Source: Candidatus Lustribacter sp. (lineage in GTDB: Bacteria; Vulcanimicrobiota; Vulcanimicrobiia; Vulcanimicrobiales; Vulcanimicrobiaceae). From it: DNA of 64,000 nt. Each line of letters begins with the position of its first letter. The first letter of the stretch is position 1. Below, one piece after another: positions 19,094-24,053 of the stretch. Made by a program: the position numbers and the translations under genes. The DNA lies in contig OZ255842.1 in the NCBI GenBank assembly GCA_965277805.1, positions 2,656,001 to 2,720,000 of the forward strand, given 5' to 3'. A model generated the notes under the pieces. It was not told the DNA's origin. It was given only the letters and a program-made list of their open reading frames with translations, and did no database searches.

Positions 19094-21019
19094 TTACGTT
19101 TTAAAGCGCTGGTAAAACTGGATTTGGGGACCGTGGAAAGCAGGCGAGAGTCCACCCGGTATCGTCGGCAATCCTGAGACAGAGTATAGACGCCACTGCA
19201 AGCCGTAACCGGTCGTGCCGTTGGGTCGCAACTCGAGGCCCGCAAACACGAGATCTTCGGCGAGCTGCGCGTTGTTCGGGCCCGAGGTATCGAACTGGCC
19301 GTTGAGGCCGAAGCGGCCGACGCCCGCGGCGCCGTACACCTTGGGGCCGAAGTTACGCGCGAAGGTCAGCACGCCGGCGGGATAGTTCACGTTGACGTTG
19401 TCTTGCGGCTGACCGGCGGGAGCTTGACGCCACGTGTTCACCTGACCGAGATCGAGCGTGATGTCGGCGAAGCTCGCGTGGTAGTTGAACCAGCCTTCCC
19501 AATGCTGTTCGTATCCGGTCGTGCCCGGATTGGTCGTCTGCACGAGGAAGTACGGCTCGATGAAACCGGGCTGAAATGCATTGCCCGGATTGAGCGCGCT
19601 GATTTGCGAATACTGCGCGAACGCTAAGCGCACTTCAACGCCGGCAACGATGAACGTCGTGTTGATCTTTCCGCCCTGACGGTTCGGTCCCACTTGCGAA
19701 TTATCGACGAGCTGATAGTCGCCGCGCAAGAACGTGCCGGGCCACGCGGCCGGATACGACCAGACGTTTTCGAGCGTGCCGTAATCGAGAACCGCCGGCG
19801 CGTAGGTGGGCTCGAAGCGCACGCCTTCGACTTGAACGTCGAAGTGCGTGAACCCGTGATGCACCTTCGCGTAGTAGTAGTTGCCGTTGGTGCAACCCGG
19901 CGTCGGATTGACGACGCCGACGGCGCTGTAGCACGAGTAGCCGTAACGCAGTTCGCCGTCGCTCGCGGCCGGCAGATTGAACGTCGCGCCGACGCCGGCG
20001 ACGAACATCTTCTGCCCGAGCACGGTCGATTGTCCGACGCCGTTCGTCACCGTCGGCAGGGTGCCGAAGAGAACGTTACCCGTGTCCGGACCGCTCGTAT
20101 TGAGGCCGGTGAGTTGCATGGAATAGCGCAGGCCGGCGCCGTGATCTTGAATCAGCGAAGCGCTGAGAATACGCGCCGGCGCGTTGTACGGCGCGGGCAG
20201 ATCGGCGCTCGTGACTTCGAGCGTGTTGATGTCGTCCTTCACCCAAAAGTCGGCGCCCGAAAGCGGAAGAATCGTCGGGCCTTCTTTGAGCACATCGTTC
20301 GTCGGCGGACCGTTGCCGATCGATTGCGGCAACTGCGGCGCGAGTTGGAACGGCGTGTTGGTCCACGGCGCCTGACTCAACGCCCACGGCACGCTCTGAT
20401 GCAAATTGAACCAGCCGACGGTGAGTGCTCCGCGGCCCGTGTGATCGGCAATCGAGCCCGAGAGAAAACCGAGCTTCGTCGCGCTGATCGGATCTTGTCC
20501 GTTGTGCGTCGGGAATGCGGGCTTGAGCGTGTACGCGCGGCTGCCGACGTTGGCGTTGATCGAGGGCATGATCGCATCGCCCCAATAGTTGACGACGTTG
20601 CCCGTGCCGGATGCCGAACCGTAGCCGATCGTCGTCGTGACGTCGACGCTCGGCGTAATCGCATAAACCGGCTTCAGCAAGAAGTCCTGACTGATGCCCT
20701 CGCCGGTAACCAGCGGACCGCCCGAAAACAAGTCGTAAGGCGTGCCCGGCGCGGGAACGCCGCCGGCGGTGAAGGCCGGGCCCTCGGCCGGGGTCGTTCC
20801 CGGGCCGGTGAGCTGCTGGTTGGTGCCGGACGTGTACGTCTCGATCTTCAAACTGAATCTCGAGGGGGGCTTCGCCGTCGGGGCGGGACTCGGTACGGAC
20901 TGCGCGACCACGGCGGGGTCCGCGGCGGGCGCATTTTGCGCCCCGGCGGGTCGCTCGAGGCCGGCAATCCCAACGAGAATGGAAGCCGCAACTACGAGCG
21001 GCAAGGCTTGCTGACGCAC
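19094..21019 (-). CDS. Secreted protein of unknown family, probable outer-membrane beta-barrel; start approximate
   Basis: Signal peptide, Gly/aromatic-rich alternating strands, C-terminus QIQFYQRFKT. Confidence 0.7.
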   Translation of the reverse strand: MRQQALPLVVAASILVGIAGLERPAGAQNAPAADPAVVAQSVPSPAPTAKPPSRFSLKIETYTSGTNQQLTGPGTTPAEGPAFTAGGVPAPGTPYDLFSGGPLVTGEGISQDFLLKPVYAITPSVDVTTTIGYGSASGTGNVVNYWGDAIMPSINANVGSRAYTLKPAFPTHNGQDPISATKLGFLSGSIADHTGRGALTVGWFNLHQSVPWALSQAPWTNTPFQLAPQLPQSIGNGPPTNDVLKEGPTILPLSGADFWVKDDINTLEVTSADLPAPYNAPARILSASLIQDHGAGLRYSMQLTGLNTSGPDTGNVLFGTLPTVTNGVGQSTVLGQKMFVAGVGATFNLPAASDGELRYGYSCYSAVGVVNPTPGCTNGNYYYAKVHHGFTHFDVQVEGVRFEPTYAPAVLDYGTLENVWSYPAAWPGTFLRGDYQLVDNSQVGPNRQGGKINTTFIVAGVEVRLAFAQYSQISALNPGNAFQPGFIEPYFLVQTTNPGTTGYEQHWEGWFNYHASFADITLDLGQVNTWRQAPAGQPQDNVNVNYPAGVLTFARNFGPKVYGAAGVGRFGLNGQFDTSGPNNAQLAEDLVFAGLELRPNGTTGYGLQWRLYSVSGLPTIPGGLSPAFHGPQIQFYQRFKT

Positions 21020-21080
21020 GCCTCCGACTTCTCTTGCGGTCGGCGTTCTCCCACCTCGAAGAGAGGAGGGGGCGGACAGC

Positions 21081-21408
21081 TGGGATGACCGAGGCTCGAA
21101 CTCGGATGCCCTCGCGGGCGGCAGATTTTCGTACCACTTCGGCTTCCGCCGCCCGGCCTTCACGATGGAGTGCCGGTTCGTGGTCTGGACTGTGCCTTGA
21201 CCGTGGGGGTCCGCCTGAGTGGACTCCGATAGGCCGCGCCCGTCCAGTCTCTACACCTTCCGCCGGCAGGTAACCGGCGGCTTGGCTCGGCGTTGTCAGG
21301 GCACTGTGTGCCTCAGAGTTCACCGAATTTGAGCGCATCCCGGCCGGCGTTTCCGTTCGGCCGGCTCACGTGTAAGTCTGCTGTGTCTGCCTATTCCACC
21401 ATCATCCC
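21081..21408 (-). tRNA. trnL-UAA: tRNA-Leu(UAA) in two exons (21408-21374 and 21129-21081); CCA not encoded
   Basis: Joined exons give acceptor stem GGGATGA/TCATCCC+A, anticodon stem GCAGA/TCTGC with loop CTTAAAA, a long variable arm and T-arm CCGAG-TTCGAGC-CTCGG. Confidence 0.93.
21130..21373 (-). ncRNA. Group I self-splicing intron (IC3-like), 244 nt, no ORF
   Basis: P1 with IGS GAG, GGATGCGCTCAAATTCGGTGAA, AACGCCGAGCCAAGCC, GGAAGGTGTAGAGACTGGACGG, AAGGCACAGTCCA, terminal omega-G. Confidence 0.93.
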
Positions 21409-21503
21409 GGATGCCGTTACGGGGCCTCTTCGACGGTCGCAACGAGGGCCTCCCCCGGCGAAAGCTTGTTTGGCATCATCGCATGCACGATAATGAAAAG
21501 TGA

Positions 21504-24053
21504 ATGTCCCTCCCCCGTGAACGCCTGACGGCGCTGCTCGCGGATTCGGCGCTGACCAGCGTCGAGCTCGTGATCGCGCCGCCCGGGTACGGCAAAACGA
21601 CGATTCTGCGCGACTACGCCGGAGACGATTCCGGCGCGGTCTTCGTGGCGCTCCCGGAAGCCGCGGATCTCGAAGCCTTCGTGCGTTCCGTGATCGCGGC
21701 TGCAGTGCCGGAGGCTCTGCATTCCGTGGGCGCGGTCTTTGATGGATCGAGCGACGAGAATCTCGATGCGCGGGCCGGCGACTGGCTCGTCTCTCGCCTG
21801 CGAGCGTTTGACGGAACGCTGATTATCGACGATTTCCATCGAACCGCGAGCGACGTTCGCGTAGCACAGGTTCTCGTGAACGCAATCGCCGCAACGCACG
21901 GTCGTATGCGCTGGGTCGTTGCATCGCGCGAGGCACCACGCTTCCCAATGGGGTCGTGGATCGCTCGCGGCTGGATGGGCTTGCCTCTTACCAGCGACGA
22001 TCTCCGGTTCACTCTCGATGAAGCACGAGAGTTGGCCGACATCCTCAACATCGCGATTTCGGAGCACGACCTCGAGGCGATCGTCGAAGACACGCTTGGG
22101 TGGCCGATCGGTGTCCGGCTCGCGCTGAGCCTGGTTGCGCGCAAACGCGCTCTCGGCCAGACGCGCGTGCAAACGCGCGAAGCGCTCTTCGCCCTGCTTG
22201 GTGACGAAGTCTGGGAACCACTCGAACCCGAACTGCGCGAGATCATCTCGTCGGCGGCACTGATGGCCGCGCCGACCATTACAACCCTCACGGCCGCTGG
22301 TTTCTCAGACGCGCGCAACGCCATCCCGCGAATCTTTTCGCGCGTGCCGTTTATCCAACCCATCGACGACGACTCTTTTGCAATACACGATCTCTTCCGC
22401 GAGTTCGTGACGGCCCAGACTCCTCGTCCCGCCGCTGAACGAACGGCCGTCGTGACGCGTATGGGTACAGCCCTTGTGTCCGGCGGAAATCCGGCCGATG
22501 GATTACGGCTGCTCATAGCCGCCGCCGATGTCGCCGGCGTGCGCGACGCACTTGCCGATCACGCCTTCAACCTGGTGGAAACCGGGCAGCGCACGATCGT
22601 GCAAACCGCGATCACGTTTCTCGGCGAGAATGAACTCGACGACGATGGCGTCGTGCTGGCGATTCGAGCGGCATTTGCCAACTCGGACGGGAGCGGAGTC
22701 AACGCGGCGAACCTTTACGTGCGCGCGTTGGCGCACAATCTTCCGTCAGAAATGCGATGCGAAGTAACGCATCGTCTCGCGATGAGCTATCTGTCGCGCA
22801 GTGATGTTCAGGCAGCCCTGAAGCTGCTTTTACCGGCCGCCGAAGACCCGACGTTTTCCGCCGACGAACATCTCGTCATGCGAGCCCTCTGCACGCTCGT
22901 TCGGGCGATGAACGGCGAAACCGCGACCATCCGCGAGTCGATCGATCACGTCGACCAAGCATTGACGTCGGTTGCCGCGGTAACGCAAGCACGGATCCTG
23001 CAACGGCTCGCAGTCGCAGCGTTCTATATCGGCGACTTCGAGGTCTCCGAACGCCTCGCGCATCGCGGCGCACTGCTCGCCGTCGACCTCTCGATGGACA
23101 CGCTCGCGGCGCTCTGCTACGGCACCCTCTACAGCATTGCTTCCAGCATCGACGGCAATACGCGGCGTGCGCGCGAATTCTTACGCGACCAGGCTGCCGC
23201 CGCCGAGCGCGCGGCTAATACCGCGCTGCGGGTGTTTGCGTTGCGCGCCGAGTTTGTGCTCGCCGCAGTGAATGCCGAAACGGAGCGGGCGCGCTCCCTC
23301 GATGCGACCCTCTCCAAACTCGTCGACGCTCGCACGTATCGGGATTCGTTTGCAATGCGAACGAGCCGCGCCCTACTTTACGTCGCAAGCGGTGACCTTA
23401 AAAAGGCGGAAGCGCCCCTGACGGCGCCGGCCTCCGACCTCTCCCCCGCCGAAGCGGCTTTCCGGGACGCCCTGCTCATTCTGCTGATGCTTGCCCGCGG
23501 CGAGCGTGCGGGCGCGGCGCTGGGGCTCGAACGCGCGCTGCTCATGGAAGCGTCGCTCGACAACTACAGCCGCACGCGGATCAGCTGCGCCTATGCCTTT
23601 CGCGCGGTCGCCTTTTGGATGCTCGACCGGCCCGTTCAAGCACGTCGCTCGTTCGGTTTCGACGCCACCGAGCTTCCGCAACACTATCGCATCCTCGTCG
23701 AAGCGCTGCGTACCCTGACCGAGTTCCGCCATCCGCTGCCCGACCGGAGCGCGGCCGCCGCTCTTTGCAACGATCTTGAAGAGGCGGACTTCGGCGCCTA
23801 TGCTGCCCTCGTGCGCCGCCTCGTCGAGCGCGATGCCAACGAAGTGGCACTGAGCTCAACGGAAATCGAGACACTTCGCGTCTTCGACCGGTACGGTGGG
23901 CGCGCGGTCGACGTCGCAAAGGCCTTGGGCAAGTCCCGTTATACGGTCCAGAACCAGATCCAGAGCGCAATCAAGAAGATCGGCTGCTCCGGCCGCGCCG
24001 AGGCGCTGGCGTATGCCCGGCAGCGCGGGTGGCTCGACCCGACCAATAGCTAA
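21504..24053 (+). CDS. MalT/LAL-like STAND ATPase regulator with helical repeats and C-terminal LuxR-type HTH
   Basis: APPGYGKTT, LIIDDFH, DLRFT..EA, TLGWP, HDLFRE, C-terminal TVQNQIQSAIKKIG. Confidence 0.88.
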   Translation: MSLPRERLTALLADSALTSVELVIAPPGYGKTTILRDYAGDDSGAVFVALPEAADLEAFVRSVIAAAVPEALHSVGAVFDGSSDENLDARAGDWLVSRLRAFDGTLIIDDFHRTASDVRVAQVLVNAIAATHGRMRWVVASREAPRFPMGSWIARGWMGLPLTSDDLRFTLDEARELADILNIAISEHDLEAIVEDTLGWPIGVRLALSLVARKRALGQTRVQTREALFALLGDEVWEPLEPELREIISSAALMAAPTITTLTAAGFSDARNAIPRIFSRVPFIQPIDDDSFAIHDLFREFVTAQTPRPAAERTAVVTRMGTALVSGGNPADGLRLLIAAADVAGVRDALADHAFNLVETGQRTIVQTAITFLGENELDDDGVVLAIRAAFANSDGSGVNAANLYVRALAHNLPSEMRCEVTHRLAMSYLSRSDVQAALKLLLPAAEDPTFSADEHLVMRALCTLVRAMNGETATIRESIDHVDQALTSVAAVTQARILQRLAVAAFYIGDFEVSERLAHRGALLAVDLSMDTLAALCYGTLYSIASSIDGNTRRAREFLRDQAAAAERAANTALRVFALRAEFVLAAVNAETERARSLDATLSKLVDARTYRDSFAMRTSRALLYVASGDLKKAEAPLTAPASDLSPAEAAFRDALLILLMLARGERAGAALGLERALLMEASLDNYSRTRISCAYAFRAVAFWMLDRPVQARRSFGFDATELPQHYRILVEALRTLTEFRHPLPDRSAAAALCNDLEEADFGAYAALVRRLVERDANEVALSSTEIETLRVFDRYGGRAVDVAKALGKSRYTVQNQIQSAIKKIGCSGRAEALAYARQRGWLDPTNS

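Follow-up and report, generated by a model that had tools for sequence, protein, structure and literature searches.

The tRNA-Leu(UAA) gene of a bacterium that most likely belongs to the Eremiobacterota (WPS-2) is, with high probability, a single-copy gene that carries, at the U34/A35 boundary, a 244-nt group I intron of subgroup IC3 and class Leu.3Ug. Because the genome holds no second tRNA-Leu(UAA) gene, reading of the UUA codon would depend on splicing. The split gene occupies positions 21081-21408 on the minus strand of the window, by which we mean the whole 64-kb stretch of DNA that was analysed. An earlier note on this DNA had proposed an IC3-type group I intron at the classical U34/A35 site, and the proposal is supported by a covarying fold, by homology to Rfam-validated introns and by the status of the gene as the only one of its kind in the genome. 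The biological addition is modest, namely a class-wide, ORF-less and GC-rich lineage of apparent IC3 introns from an uncultured soil phylum, and it concerns a genome's only UUA decoder, which standard annotation overlooks.

Anatomy of the split gene

The coordinates and anatomy given in the earlier note, a tRNA-Leu(UAA) gene with a 244-nt insert between U34 and A35, proved exact: a 35-nt 5' exon ending in U34 is followed by the insert and a 49-nt 3' exon (Table 1). Joined in silico, the exons make the 84-nt tRNA that splicing had been expected to restore, which ARAGORN calls as tRNA-Leu(taa). This product agrees at 71-79 of 84 positions with seven tRNA-Leu(UAA) genes that naturally lack an intron in relatives, and all eight sequences have the anticodon loop CTTAAAA in common; the 5' exon matches the 5' halves of the relatives' intron-less genes with 89-100% identity. 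The insertion point lies between anticodon-loop positions 3 and 4 (CUU/..g/AAAA), which places the intron in class Leu.3Ug, defined as U(-1)/omega-G introns past anticodon-loop position 3 of tRNA-Leu (Williams 2020). GC content is 66.4% in the intron and 63.0% in the 64-kb window.

Table 1. Positions in the window of the split tRNA-Leu(UAA) gene, the predicted elements of its intron and the downstream gene
Feature	Position	Strand	Description
5' exon, tRNA-Leu(UAA)	21374..21408	-	35 nt, ends ..GACTT; acceptor 5' strand, D arm, anticodon-stem 5' strand, C32 U33 U34; from ARAGORN on spliced and unspliced sequence
Group I intron	21130..21373	-	244 nt, ACACGTGAG...GGTACG; IC3-type by homology, without ORF
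3' exon, tRNA-Leu(UAA)	21081..21129	-	49 nt, starts AAAATCTGC...; A35 A36, anticodon-stem 3' strand, long variable arm, T arm, acceptor 3' strand, discriminator A; CCA not encoded
P1	21365..21376	-	Formed by exon CUU and the first base of the intron with intron UGAG
P2 hairpin	21340..21364	-	Invariant GAAA loop 21350-21353; 9 pairs, 6 compensatory, 97.3% of cells paired
P3 5' strand GCGCTC, then J3/4 AAA	21331..21336	-	Partner 21236-21241; invariant within clade
P4 enclosing P5	21286..21327	-	P4 21321-21327 / 21286-21292; P5 hairpin 21296-21317
P6 hairpin	21260..21280	-	Compensatory changes in 5/5 pairs; 100% paired
R element	21236..21249	-	P7 5' strand GACTG 21245-21249; P3 3' strand GGGCGC 21236-21241
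P8 hairpin	21199..21235	-	Outer helix 99%, inner helix 95.9% paired; inner pairs 4/4 compensatory
P7 3' strand CAGTC (S element)	21188..21192	-	Presumed guanosine-binding helix
P9 ACCAC/GTGGT enclosing P9a and P9b	21133..21184	-	
Omega-G, last intron nucleotide	21130	-	G in 25/25 aligned homologues (G279 of first sequence)
Downstream gene	19094..21019	-	641-aa protein, signal-peptide-like N-terminus, without Pfam match; outside intron

ARAGORN in default mode (window and locus) and the Rfam tRNA model (window) called nothing at 21081-21408. Both fail because the intron interrupts the gene, and Rfam Intron_gpI misses the intron for want of seeds representative of bacterial tRNA introns; since annotation misses the split gene, genome reports for the phylum would wrongly give tRNA-Leu(UAA) as missing. 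With introns enabled, a check that had been proposed together with the gene, ARAGORN returned tRNA-Leu (taa) i(36,244) at exactly the expected ends and with exact exon/intron borders. This mode is weak evidence alone, because it adds 37 calls genome-wide (84 with introns enabled against 47 without, 37 of the 84 being intron-bearing). The call at 21081-21408 is nonetheless no chance match, given the likeness of the spliced product to natural intron-less genes and the gap in the Leu anticodon set that it fills.

Group I identity and fold of the intron

Searches with the Rfam model RF00028 at E <= 10 gave nothing at the locus in the window, in a 901-nt excerpt, in a 256-nt excerpt or in the whole genome, and the gathering cut-off of 50 bits was not reached by the window intron. 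In positive controls the same model found six of six cyanobacterial tRNA-Leu introns at 65-91 bits, in contrast to the unmatched, GC-rich (66%) window intron, and introns of other phyla at 33-56 bits; among the Eremiobacterota homologues one (L090) scored 32.1 bits (E = 7.3e-5) and three other near homologues were unmatched. We judge the RF00028 miss to be a false negative of a model with limited sensitivity, because the control scores are graded and the Rfam seeds of RF00028 include no bacterial intron (Williams 2020).

The cores of seven introns above Rfam's 50-bit cut-off (five cyanobacterial tRNA-Leu, one Polynucleobacter tRNA-Met and one Acidobacteriaceae tRNA-Leu, none from Eremiobacterota) were used to build covariance model R1, which gave a single match in the 64-kb window, at 21186-21339(-), covering the full model with 89 bits and an E-value of about 2e-26, which is rough because calibration was shortened. 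The earlier note had named Infernal searches with group I models as a check and the lack of any hit as telling against its reading. Formally RF00028 returned just that lack, which is read here as a failure of sensitivity, and R1, derived from Rfam-passing bacterial introns, returned the hit. An nhmmer profile of nine Rfam-passing introns likewise had one match in the whole genome of 5.53 Mb, at positions 21178-21340 of the window with E = 1.4e-15, and a profile of six cyanobacterial introns alone found the same locus as its sole genome match (E = 2.9e-5). The R1 and nhmmer matches consist of catalytic-core sequence (R, S, J3/4, J6/7 and J8/7) shared with validated members. Homology to introns that are all marked IC3 in Williams 2020 suggests that the window intron also belongs to this subgroup.

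The P1-P9 model was evaluated on 25 homologues, 206-277 nt in intron length. Its 62 pairs in 12 helices are formed in 97.2% of cells, as against 31-40% for slid partners; 29 pairs have changed on both sides, giving 234 compensatory cells, and the covariation score of 0.407 (0.05-0.08 for slid partners) was reached by none of 500 shuffles. RNAalifold, unaided, finds P1, P2, P4, P5, P6, P8 and P9 in the same homologues. A fold of the single sequence is less distinctive, with z = -1.91 and 8 of 200 shuffles equally stable. The features named in the earlier note, namely the P1 guide, the P7 strands (..GACTG.. / ..CAGTC..) and the terminal G, were all found. At the 5' splice site U(-1) at 21374 forms the wobble with G at 21367, and the C-G, U-A and U.G pairs of P1 are the same in all 25 homologues, the fourth pair showing four pair types. 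P4 is paired in 95.4% and P5 in 91.8% of cells, with compensatory changes in six of seven P5 pairs. P5 is a simple hairpin without a P5abc-type extension, which fits a compact IC3 core; P5(a-d) is described as missing from IC3 introns (PMC11835236). P8 is a candidate receptor for the GAAA loop of L2.

Support for P3 and P7 comes from more distant homologues because both helices are invariant inside the clade. Across 120 wider-family loci, searched with purpose-written regular expressions, both helices covary. The P7 strands were located in 111 loci and not in the other 9; the fifth P7 pair is Watson-Crick in all 111 (A-U 71, G-C 17, U-A 13, C-G 10), and P3, where located, pairs along its whole length in 98 of 111 loci, 94.1% of its cells being paired as compared with 29-47% when the register is slid. 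The order P3-[P4-P5-P6]-P7-P3'-P8-P7'-P9, including the P3/P7 pseudoknot, is thus present and supported by covariation.

UUA decoding, splicing and the resident locus

Among the 47 intron-free tRNAs that ARAGORN finds genome-wide, the leucine anticodons CAA, CAG, GAG and UAG are present and UAA is missing. The split gene, whose full sequence occurs once in the genome, fills this sole gap, in agreement with the earlier proposal that TTA decoding depends on splicing. TTA has a frequency of 1.57 per 1000 codons, and 1474 of 3132 crude long ORFs (47%) contain it; since the split gene is the only tRNA-Leu(UAA), we infer that splicing must work in vivo. A regulatory role like that of bldA was considered for this rare-codon tRNA and is unlikely, because TTA in 47% of long ORFs does not make a small regulon.

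By analogy with known group I introns, the split gene would be transcribed into a precursor whose intron would adopt the P1-P9 fold with its P3/P7 pseudoknot, and the 5' splice site would be set by the anticodon stem of the exon and the U.G pair of P1. An exogenous guanosine bound in P7 would attack this site; the terminal G (21130) would then occupy the guanosine's place, and the freed 3'-OH of U34 would attack the 3' splice site to release the 84-nt tRNA. The same analogy suggests that the chemistry is self-splicing and independent of proteins. It is improbable, by comparison, that a true group I intron is present which cannot splice alone and needs a host protein such as a chaperone, a maturase-like factor or an aminoacyl-tRNA synthetase. 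The P9b loop (L9b) is GGAA in the window intron versus GAAA in 22 of 25 homologues, a change that could weaken one tertiary contact. However, the core elements and peripheral hairpins are all conserved with compensatory changes, neither an intron ORF nor an adjacent maturase-like gene was found, and the classical IC3 tRNA introns, those of Anabaena tRNA-Leu, Azoarcus tRNA-Ile and Agrobacterium tRNA-Arg, self-splice in vitro.

RNA data touch on a second alternative, in which the locus is a decaying pseudogene, its intron being inactive or its tRNA dead, and another means of reading UUA exists. Sixteen RNA runs contain a small share of the words of the locus, and four metatranscriptomes were compared at 85% likeness; a splice joint was looked for in the contigs of these four and none was found, both splice sites being bridged unspliced. 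The contigs span only 21081-21445, ending at the gene edges, and, as Logan contigs that come from relatives, with a likeness of mostly 85-95%, they cannot show transcription or splicing. This lack of spliced RNA and the RF00028 miss would both fit a pseudogene, but the reading is very improbable: the gene is the only tRNA-Leu(UAA) of a genome that nonetheless uses TTA in nearly half of its long ORFs, the exons closely match intact intron-less genes (71-79 of 84 positions), and across the 25 homologues 97.2% of structural cells are paired, 234 are compensatory and the splice-site nucleotides are invariant. A functional split gene is the preferred reading. As a separate observation, in one contig (X3 record 9) the 5' exon runs into loose letters resembling a relative's 3' exon; this contig may derive from a relative's intron-less gene because it carries flanks.

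The split tRNA-Leu(UAA) is a resident chromosomal gene, since no integrase lies within about 10 kb, the tRNA 3' end is not repeated in the window, and synteny with same-genus genomes holds on both flanks. The 22 ORFs scanned at 9.8-32.2 kb of the window (about 10 kb on each side) included no integrase or phage families; matches were to ETF alpha/beta, AccA/AccD-like, Ppx/GppA, RpiR, HD, TPR and GGDEF proteins, and 8 of the 22 were unmatched. It is scarcely credible that the gene is a replacement tRNA-Leu copy delivered by an integrase-bearing genomic island, given those 22 ORFs, the single occurrence in the 64-kb window of the 23-nt tRNA 3' end, even when up to 3 mismatches are allowed, the single full gene in the genome and the conserved flanks. 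Scans of 20900-21620 for sigma-70 promoters and intrinsic terminators returned 0 and 0.

The ORF track had been said to miscall the region as protein-coding, which comes down to mechanical extension of ORFs. The 689-aa ORF at 19094-21163(-) overruns the 3' exon, but it has the look of a genuine gene, with GTG 21019 as its probable start; the resulting 641-aa gene is conserved beside the tRNA within the genus. The 420-aa ORF at 20076-21338(-) has a non-coding composition.

Distribution, phylogeny and known relatives

Of 41 relatives 31 give a match, which covers the full length in 22. In a sample of 401 genomes of the phylum 272 match, with 253 of 296 in family f1, 17 of 30 in family f3 and 1 of 74 in other families. 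The introns of the clade cover two families of one class at 67-98% identity and are interspersed with intron-less alleles, and at least one visible scar marks an intron loss. The intron would have passed down within a single class of the phylum, being precisely lost or replaced on repeated occasions, and it is not a homing element now because it has no ORF. Natural intron-plus and intron-minus alleles together with the loss scar make the lineage useful for work on the persistence and loss of non-mobile group I introns, and introns of 206-277 nt may also be a source of compact, stable ribozymes.

Phylogenetic analysis places all 26 introns of the Eremiobacterota clade on one branch and the nine cyanobacterial introns on a separate one (support 100/100 for each), with stem lengths of 0.64 and 0.66, respectively, in a quick tree. 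The host genome is non-cyanobacterial, as previously supposed. In the quick IQ-TREE search a constrained tree was 21.6 log-likelihood units higher, and a careful search was used instead. In the careful tree the 26 Eremiobacterota rows join nine alphaproteobacterial rows of tRNA-Arg(CCU) type (support 98/92). This sister relation is insecure because a tree constrained to unite Eremiobacterota and Cyanobacteria lies 3.9 log-likelihood units above the free careful tree (p-AU 0.548). A single clade of all tRNA-Leu(UAA) introns is rejected (p-AU 0.0004).

It is doubtful, on these trees, that the Eremiobacterota clade is the sister of the cyanobacterial/plastid trnL intron, with an intron at U34/A35 in the common ancestor of these terrabacterial phyla and vertical inheritance with losses since then. 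Long-branch attraction is an equally good reading because each clade has a long stem and the cyanobacterial rows deviate in composition. If such an ancestry were true, the 'oldest known intron' would predate the Cyanobacteria themselves. A recent horizontal transfer from a cyanobacterium or plastid is extremely unlikely. The insertion site and subgroup are identical and the grouping with Cyanobacteria survives the AU test, but the window intron is not nested inside Cyanobacteria because the two clades branch separately, each on a long stem. Moreover, no cyanobacterial intron is found among the best 60 BLAST matches listed, and the intron occurs in two families of a class at the identities given above, with a GC content like that of the host.

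Where the earlier note implied that such an intron is rare outside Cyanobacteria, a motif scan says otherwise: 39 of the 50 intron-split tRNA-Leu(UAA) genes found are in named non-cyanobacterial phyla. The window intron is therefore genuine but ordinary, such introns being already catalogued in many bacterial phyla. The survey of Williams 2020, based on genomes as of January 2017, describes 5292 split tRNA genes that are spread over phyla, with 'metagenomic assemblies from unnamed phyla' among the sources; its first phase used RF00028 at >= 18 bits and its second a new model. The window intron fits the Leu.3Ug definition of that survey, yet it would fail the first-phase threshold. Literature searches for a group I intron and tRNA in Eremiobacterota, or for a group I intron in WPS-2, found none, and a search for a group I intron and tRNA in Melainabacteria gave nothing relevant, judged by title and abstract. 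A tRNA-Leu(UAA) intron from a gamma-proteobacterium is said to have been described in a 2002 J. Bacteriol. paper, and the cyanobacterial tRNA-Leu(UAA) intron was reportedly studied by Kuhsel et al. 1990 and Zaug et al. 1993.

The introns of Agrobacterium tRNA-Arg and Azoarcus tRNA-Ile are IC3 introns. The alphaproteobacterial tRNA-Arg(CCU)-type introns (loci L047, L052, L067, L094 and L141, and loci that ARAGORN calls 'His(atg)') are the nearest neighbours of the window intron in the careful tree and are among its best non-clade BLAST matches. Like the window intron they are compact and have GAAA-capped P2 and P9, but they reside in another host tRNA and at another anticodon-loop position. The cyanobacterial tRNA-Leu introns (loci L040, L062, L070, L092, L115 and L138) share with the window intron the gene, the site (CUU/intron/AAAA), the helix order, the R and S elements, the P1 U.G pair and omega-G, and likewise have neither a P5abc-type extension nor an ORF. 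The two differ by compensatory changes in the central helices: P3 is GCGCTC/GGGCGC in the window intron and GCTCTC/GGGAGC in the cyanobacterial loci, and P7 is GACTG/CAGTC and GACTC/GAGTC, respectively.

Anatomy of the split gene and the genome's reliance on it

The earlier note had described a tRNA-Leu(UAA) gene interrupted by a 244-nt insert, and its coordinates and description proved exact when the exons were cut by script at its junctions and the product was given to ARAGORN. Joined in silico, the exons form an 84-nt tRNA-Leu(taa) whose acceptor stem has 7 bp, whose variable arm is long and whose anticodon loop reads CUUAAAA. With introns enabled, ARAGORN called tRNA-Leu (taa) i(36,244) with ends identical to that cut; in default mode it made no call at the split gene, and neither did the Rfam tRNA model. 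Because the intron mode is permissive (84 calls in the 5.53-Mb genome, 37 with an intron, vs 47 without it, that is, 37 more), independent support was sought. Uninterrupted tRNA-Leu(UAA) genes in relatives include seven that share 71-79 of the 84 positions with the in-silico product and have the same anticodon loop in sequence and place. Sister genomes hold the "spliced" sequence as DNA, and the exon junction sits at the proposed site.

Features of the split gene and its surroundings (window coordinates)
Feature	Position	Strand	Remarks
5' exon of tRNA-Leu(UAA)	21374-21408	minus	35 nt, ends ..CAGACTT; cut at the junctions of the earlier note
Intron	21130-21373	minus	244 nt; same cut
3' exon of tRNA-Leu(UAA)	21081-21129	minus	49 nt, starts AAAATCTGC; same cut
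641-aa protein	19094-21019	minus	directly downstream of the tRNA; signal-peptide-like N-terminus, no Pfam match
ETF beta, then alpha			beyond the 641-aa protein gene, downstream side
AAA_22/TPR protein			upstream of the tRNA, divergent
Farther neighbours			HD-domain proteins, Ppx/GppA, RpiR, AccA/AccD-like subunits
Farther neighbours			glycosyltransferase, histone-deacetylase-family protein, redoxin, GGDEF protein

The 47 intron-free tRNAs called in the genome include Leu CAA, CAG, GAG and UAG, with UAA absent, and the split gene, of which no second full copy was found in the genome, supplies exactly this missing species. TTA is a rare codon (1.57 per 1000 codons and 1.7% of Leu in crude long ORFs), present in 1474 of 3132 long ORFs of a crude set made without gene prediction. 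Decoding of TTA therefore does rely on splicing, as had been proposed, and loss of splicing would be severely harmful, which argues for efficient splicing. A narrow bldA-like regulatory role was also considered, and the same ORF count argues against it. One of the 47 intron-free tRNAs called by ARAGORN is a tRNA-SeC(tca), so the organism probably uses selenocysteine.

The split gene is a resident chromosomal gene. No integrase was found among the scanned neighbouring ORFs, and no repeat of the tRNA 3' end within the 64-kb window. Same-genus genomes keep both flanking proteins beside the gene (downstream at 4 loci, upstream at 4 loci), and outside the genus one weak flanking-protein match is left. 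In same-genus genomes the 641-aa protein lies beside the tRNA at 66-97% identity; at a further locus, L022, a 31%-identical relative of it adjoins the tRNA. The protein-coding miscall that the earlier note saw in the ORF track is a matter of mechanical ORF extension. ORF 19094-21163(-) has coding composition (GC3 0.78) and likely starts at GTG 21019, and what overlaps the 3' exon, together with 34 nt of intron sequence, is just its stop-free 5' extension. ORF 20076-21338(-) has a shadow-frame composition (GC3 0.565, below GC1 at 0.77).

Group I identity, fold and proposed splicing

The 244-nt insert is a group I intron, as first read from the sequence; models built from Rfam-passing introns, a covarying canonical fold and invariant splice-site nucleotides all say so. 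The earlier note had made this identity depend on a group I model hit, and RF00028 (Rfam Intron_gpI, cut-off 50 bits) gave this intron no match at E <= 10, whether run on the window, on excerpts of 901 nt and 256 nt, or on the whole genome. The check itself was therefore tried on control introns. RF00028 found cyanobacterial tRNA-Leu introns in 6/6 cases at 65-91 bits, and then introns of Caldilineaceae (56 bits), Polynucleobacter (tRNA-Met, 54.5), Acidobacteriaceae (51), Bacteroidetes (50), Binatia (47), Phenylobacterium (45) and Burkholderia (33). L090, an Eremiobacterota homologue 72% identical to the studied intron, scored 32 bits (E = 7.3e-5), and the near relatives L033, L100 and L136 had no match, as the studied intron had none. 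The scores decay smoothly along one homologous series, with no boundary between kinds. None of the 12 Rfam group I seeds is bacterial, and seeding a model with bacterial tRNA introns gave a yield 20% higher (Williams 2020).

Our own models used only introns above the Rfam curated cut-off, none of them from the host's phylum. An nhmmer profile of nine such introns has a single match in the whole genome, at 21178-21340 (E = 1.4e-15), and a profile of six cyanobacterial introns alone finds the same single place (E = 2.9e-5). R1, a covariance model of the core from P3 to P7 (seven introns, 28 base pairs set by hand, each row checked), has one full-model match on the 64-kb window, 21186-21339(-), with 89 bits and an E of about 2e-26, approximate because of rough calibration.

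Matches to the gene were found in 31 of 41 genomes of relatives, 22 of them full-length at 69-98% identity. The 25 rows of alignment A1 are the window gene, 20 relatives' genes and four named loci of Eremiobacterota (WPS-2), excluding L011 from the unpublished genome G015 and L008, which ends at a contig edge. RNAalifold, which is unable to draw the P3/P7 pseudoknot, returned unprompted the tRNA stems and P1, P2, P4, P5, P6, P8 and P9, with compensatory changes at 38 of 89 pairs; the exon anticodon stem covaries too (first pair G-C in 16 rows, A-U in 9). The canonical structure, written explicitly as 62 pairs in 12 helices, is paired in 97.2% of 1532 cells vs 31-40% with partners slid 1-3 columns. 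Two-sided changes occur at 29 pairs (234 cells), and the covariation score of 0.407 (0.05-0.08 when slid) was reached by 0 of 500 shuffles. Compensatory changes abound in P2, P5, P6, inner P8, P9a and P9b. In P1 the C-G, U-A and U.G pairs are invariant and the fourth pair takes four types; omega-G is invariant as well. The single-sequence fold is unremarkable (-105.6 kcal/mol, z = -1.91).

P3 (6 bp) and P7 (5 bp) show no variation inside the clade, the Eremiobacterota branch of the intron tree, and are uninformative there either way, so loci of the wider family were examined. GTDB species genomes scanned for the R-element motif gave at least 120 loci. Among the 120 matches listed, both strands, placed by our own regular expressions, were located in 111 (9 not located), and the fifth P7 pair is Watson-Crick in all 111 (A-U 71, G-C 17, U-A 13, C-G 10), in loci chosen by an exact motif match covering four of the five P7 5' bases. 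The P3 strands, placed in the same way, were also located in 111 of the 120 (9 not located), and 98 of those have P3 fully paired; among the matches listed, 94.1% of its cells are paired vs 29-47% in shifted registers, with at least 12 helix variants.

By analogy with the intron family, the precursor would fold with the exon anticodon stem intact, guanosine bound in P7 would attack after U34, and omega-G (21130) would then take its place for the exon ligation that yields the tRNA. As in other compact IC3 introns, P8 and P5 probably receive P2's invariant GAAA loop and P9b's GNRA-type loop. An ORF would not fit in the intron, which is therefore not a homing element now.

Distribution and descent within the phylum

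The closest named sequences among the matches listed are from 'Candidatus Elarobacter' (79%) and 'Vulcanimicrobiota bacterium' (78%), followed by a second Elarobacter and 'Candidatus Eremiobacteraeota' (both 72%). Judged by these neighbours, the host most likely belongs to Eremiobacterota (WPS-2). In a phylum sample of 401 genomes, whose tallies take in eight unpublished ones (G015, G366, G245, G288, G251, G194, G260, G247) on which no conclusion depends, the 328-nt query matches 272: 253 of 296 in family f1, 17 of 30 in f3 and 1 of 74 (E = 9.7e-4) in 19 other families, where absence is weak since a BLAST-type query is blind to very divergent introns. A hand count gives about 160 genomes whose matches are full-length and of intron scale (E < 1e-18) and about 110 in which only the exons match; the latter are intron-less genes or fragments, and one genus often contains both kinds. 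Locus L025 (G014:C69, 1501-1827, minus) has an intron-less tRNA-Leu(UAA) and, ~80 nt downstream, the intron's 3' half (J6/7 to omega-G) with a second 3' exon; this remnant is an intron-loss scar, in which the 5' part of an intron-bearing gene was replaced. Partial matches of this type (query 149-328) are also seen in G381 and G238.

Five genomes of f2 (genus g19), a sister family in the same order, are 82-98% complete and show no match even to the exons, while f3, of another order, carries the intron; in these f2 genomes the tRNA-Leu(UAA) gene may have diverged or be missing from the assemblies. The tRNA-Leu gene and intron of L102 (DATHMY010000077.1, a MAG titled Candidatus Acidoferrum sp.) nest inside the clade, with 70% identity to the studied gene over positions 1-313; mis-binning of the contig, an oddity of naming or a transfer could each explain this.

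A careful IQ-TREE tree of 118 introns and 228 columns gives the 26 Eremiobacterota-clade rows and the nine cyanobacterial rows a branch each, both at 100/100. The next larger set with support joins the 26 rows to nine alphaproteobacterial tRNA-Arg(CCU)-type rows (98/92), but a tree that forces Eremiobacterota and Cyanobacteria together scores 3.9 log-likelihood units higher than the one from the free search (p-AU 0.548). Both clades have long stems and the cyanobacterial rows are deviant in composition, so either deep placement is tentative. Forcing all 72 tRNA-Leu(UAA) introns, a group chosen after the tree was seen, into one clade is 137.6 units worse and rejected (p-AU 0.0004); introns at the U34/A35 site are therefore not a single lineage apart from those of other tRNAs. 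Within the class there is one intron clade that tracks genera, with no ORF, patchy absence and one loss scar, a pattern that fits vertical descent with repeated loss.

Relatives beyond the phylum and a candidate intron in 23S rRNA

ARAGORN called intron-split tRNAs at 92 of the 120 motif loci listed and made no such call at the other 28. Among the matches listed, 50 of the 92 are tRNA-Leu(taa): Pseudomonadota 24, Cyanobacteriota 7, Acidobacteriota 6, Vulcanimicrobiota 3, Bacteroidota 3, Chloroflexota 2, Binatota 1 and unlabelled 4. Given this spread, tRNA-Leu(UAA) introns outside Cyanobacteria are common in the genome data now available. A survey counted 5292 split tRNA genes, divided among 21 classes; Leu.3Ug is a classical class, and the 72 Leu.3Cg cases all come from Proteobacteria (Williams 2020). 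No paper was found that names Eremiobacterota or WPS-2 together with group I introns; the intron is an Eremiobacterota lineage of a well-known kind, and the general phenomenon is already in print. Of greatest use is the finding that this lineage's sole UUA decoder escapes both Rfam and default tRNA finders.

The IC3 core motif also lies in split genes labelled by ARAGORN as Met(cat), Arg(cct), Phe(gaa), Thr, Ser, His(atg), Asn and others (L033-L152), in many phyla, Saccharimonadota, Nitrospirota and Actinomycetota among them. Where the label is odd, as with Ser(aga), His(atg) and Phe(aaa), ARAGORN probably set the splice sites one or two bases off.

Compared with E. coli 23S, the genome's only 23S rRNA gene contains a ~301-nt insert without a long ORF (G000:C1:1303438-1303738; L032 1512-1812), about 1.35 Mb before the window. 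It lies near E. coli position 2500, in a numbering anchored on a sarcin-ricin-loop motif. With RF00028 the insert reaches 37.1 bits (E = 1.5e-7), short of the cut-off; it may be the genome's second group I intron, one located in rRNA.
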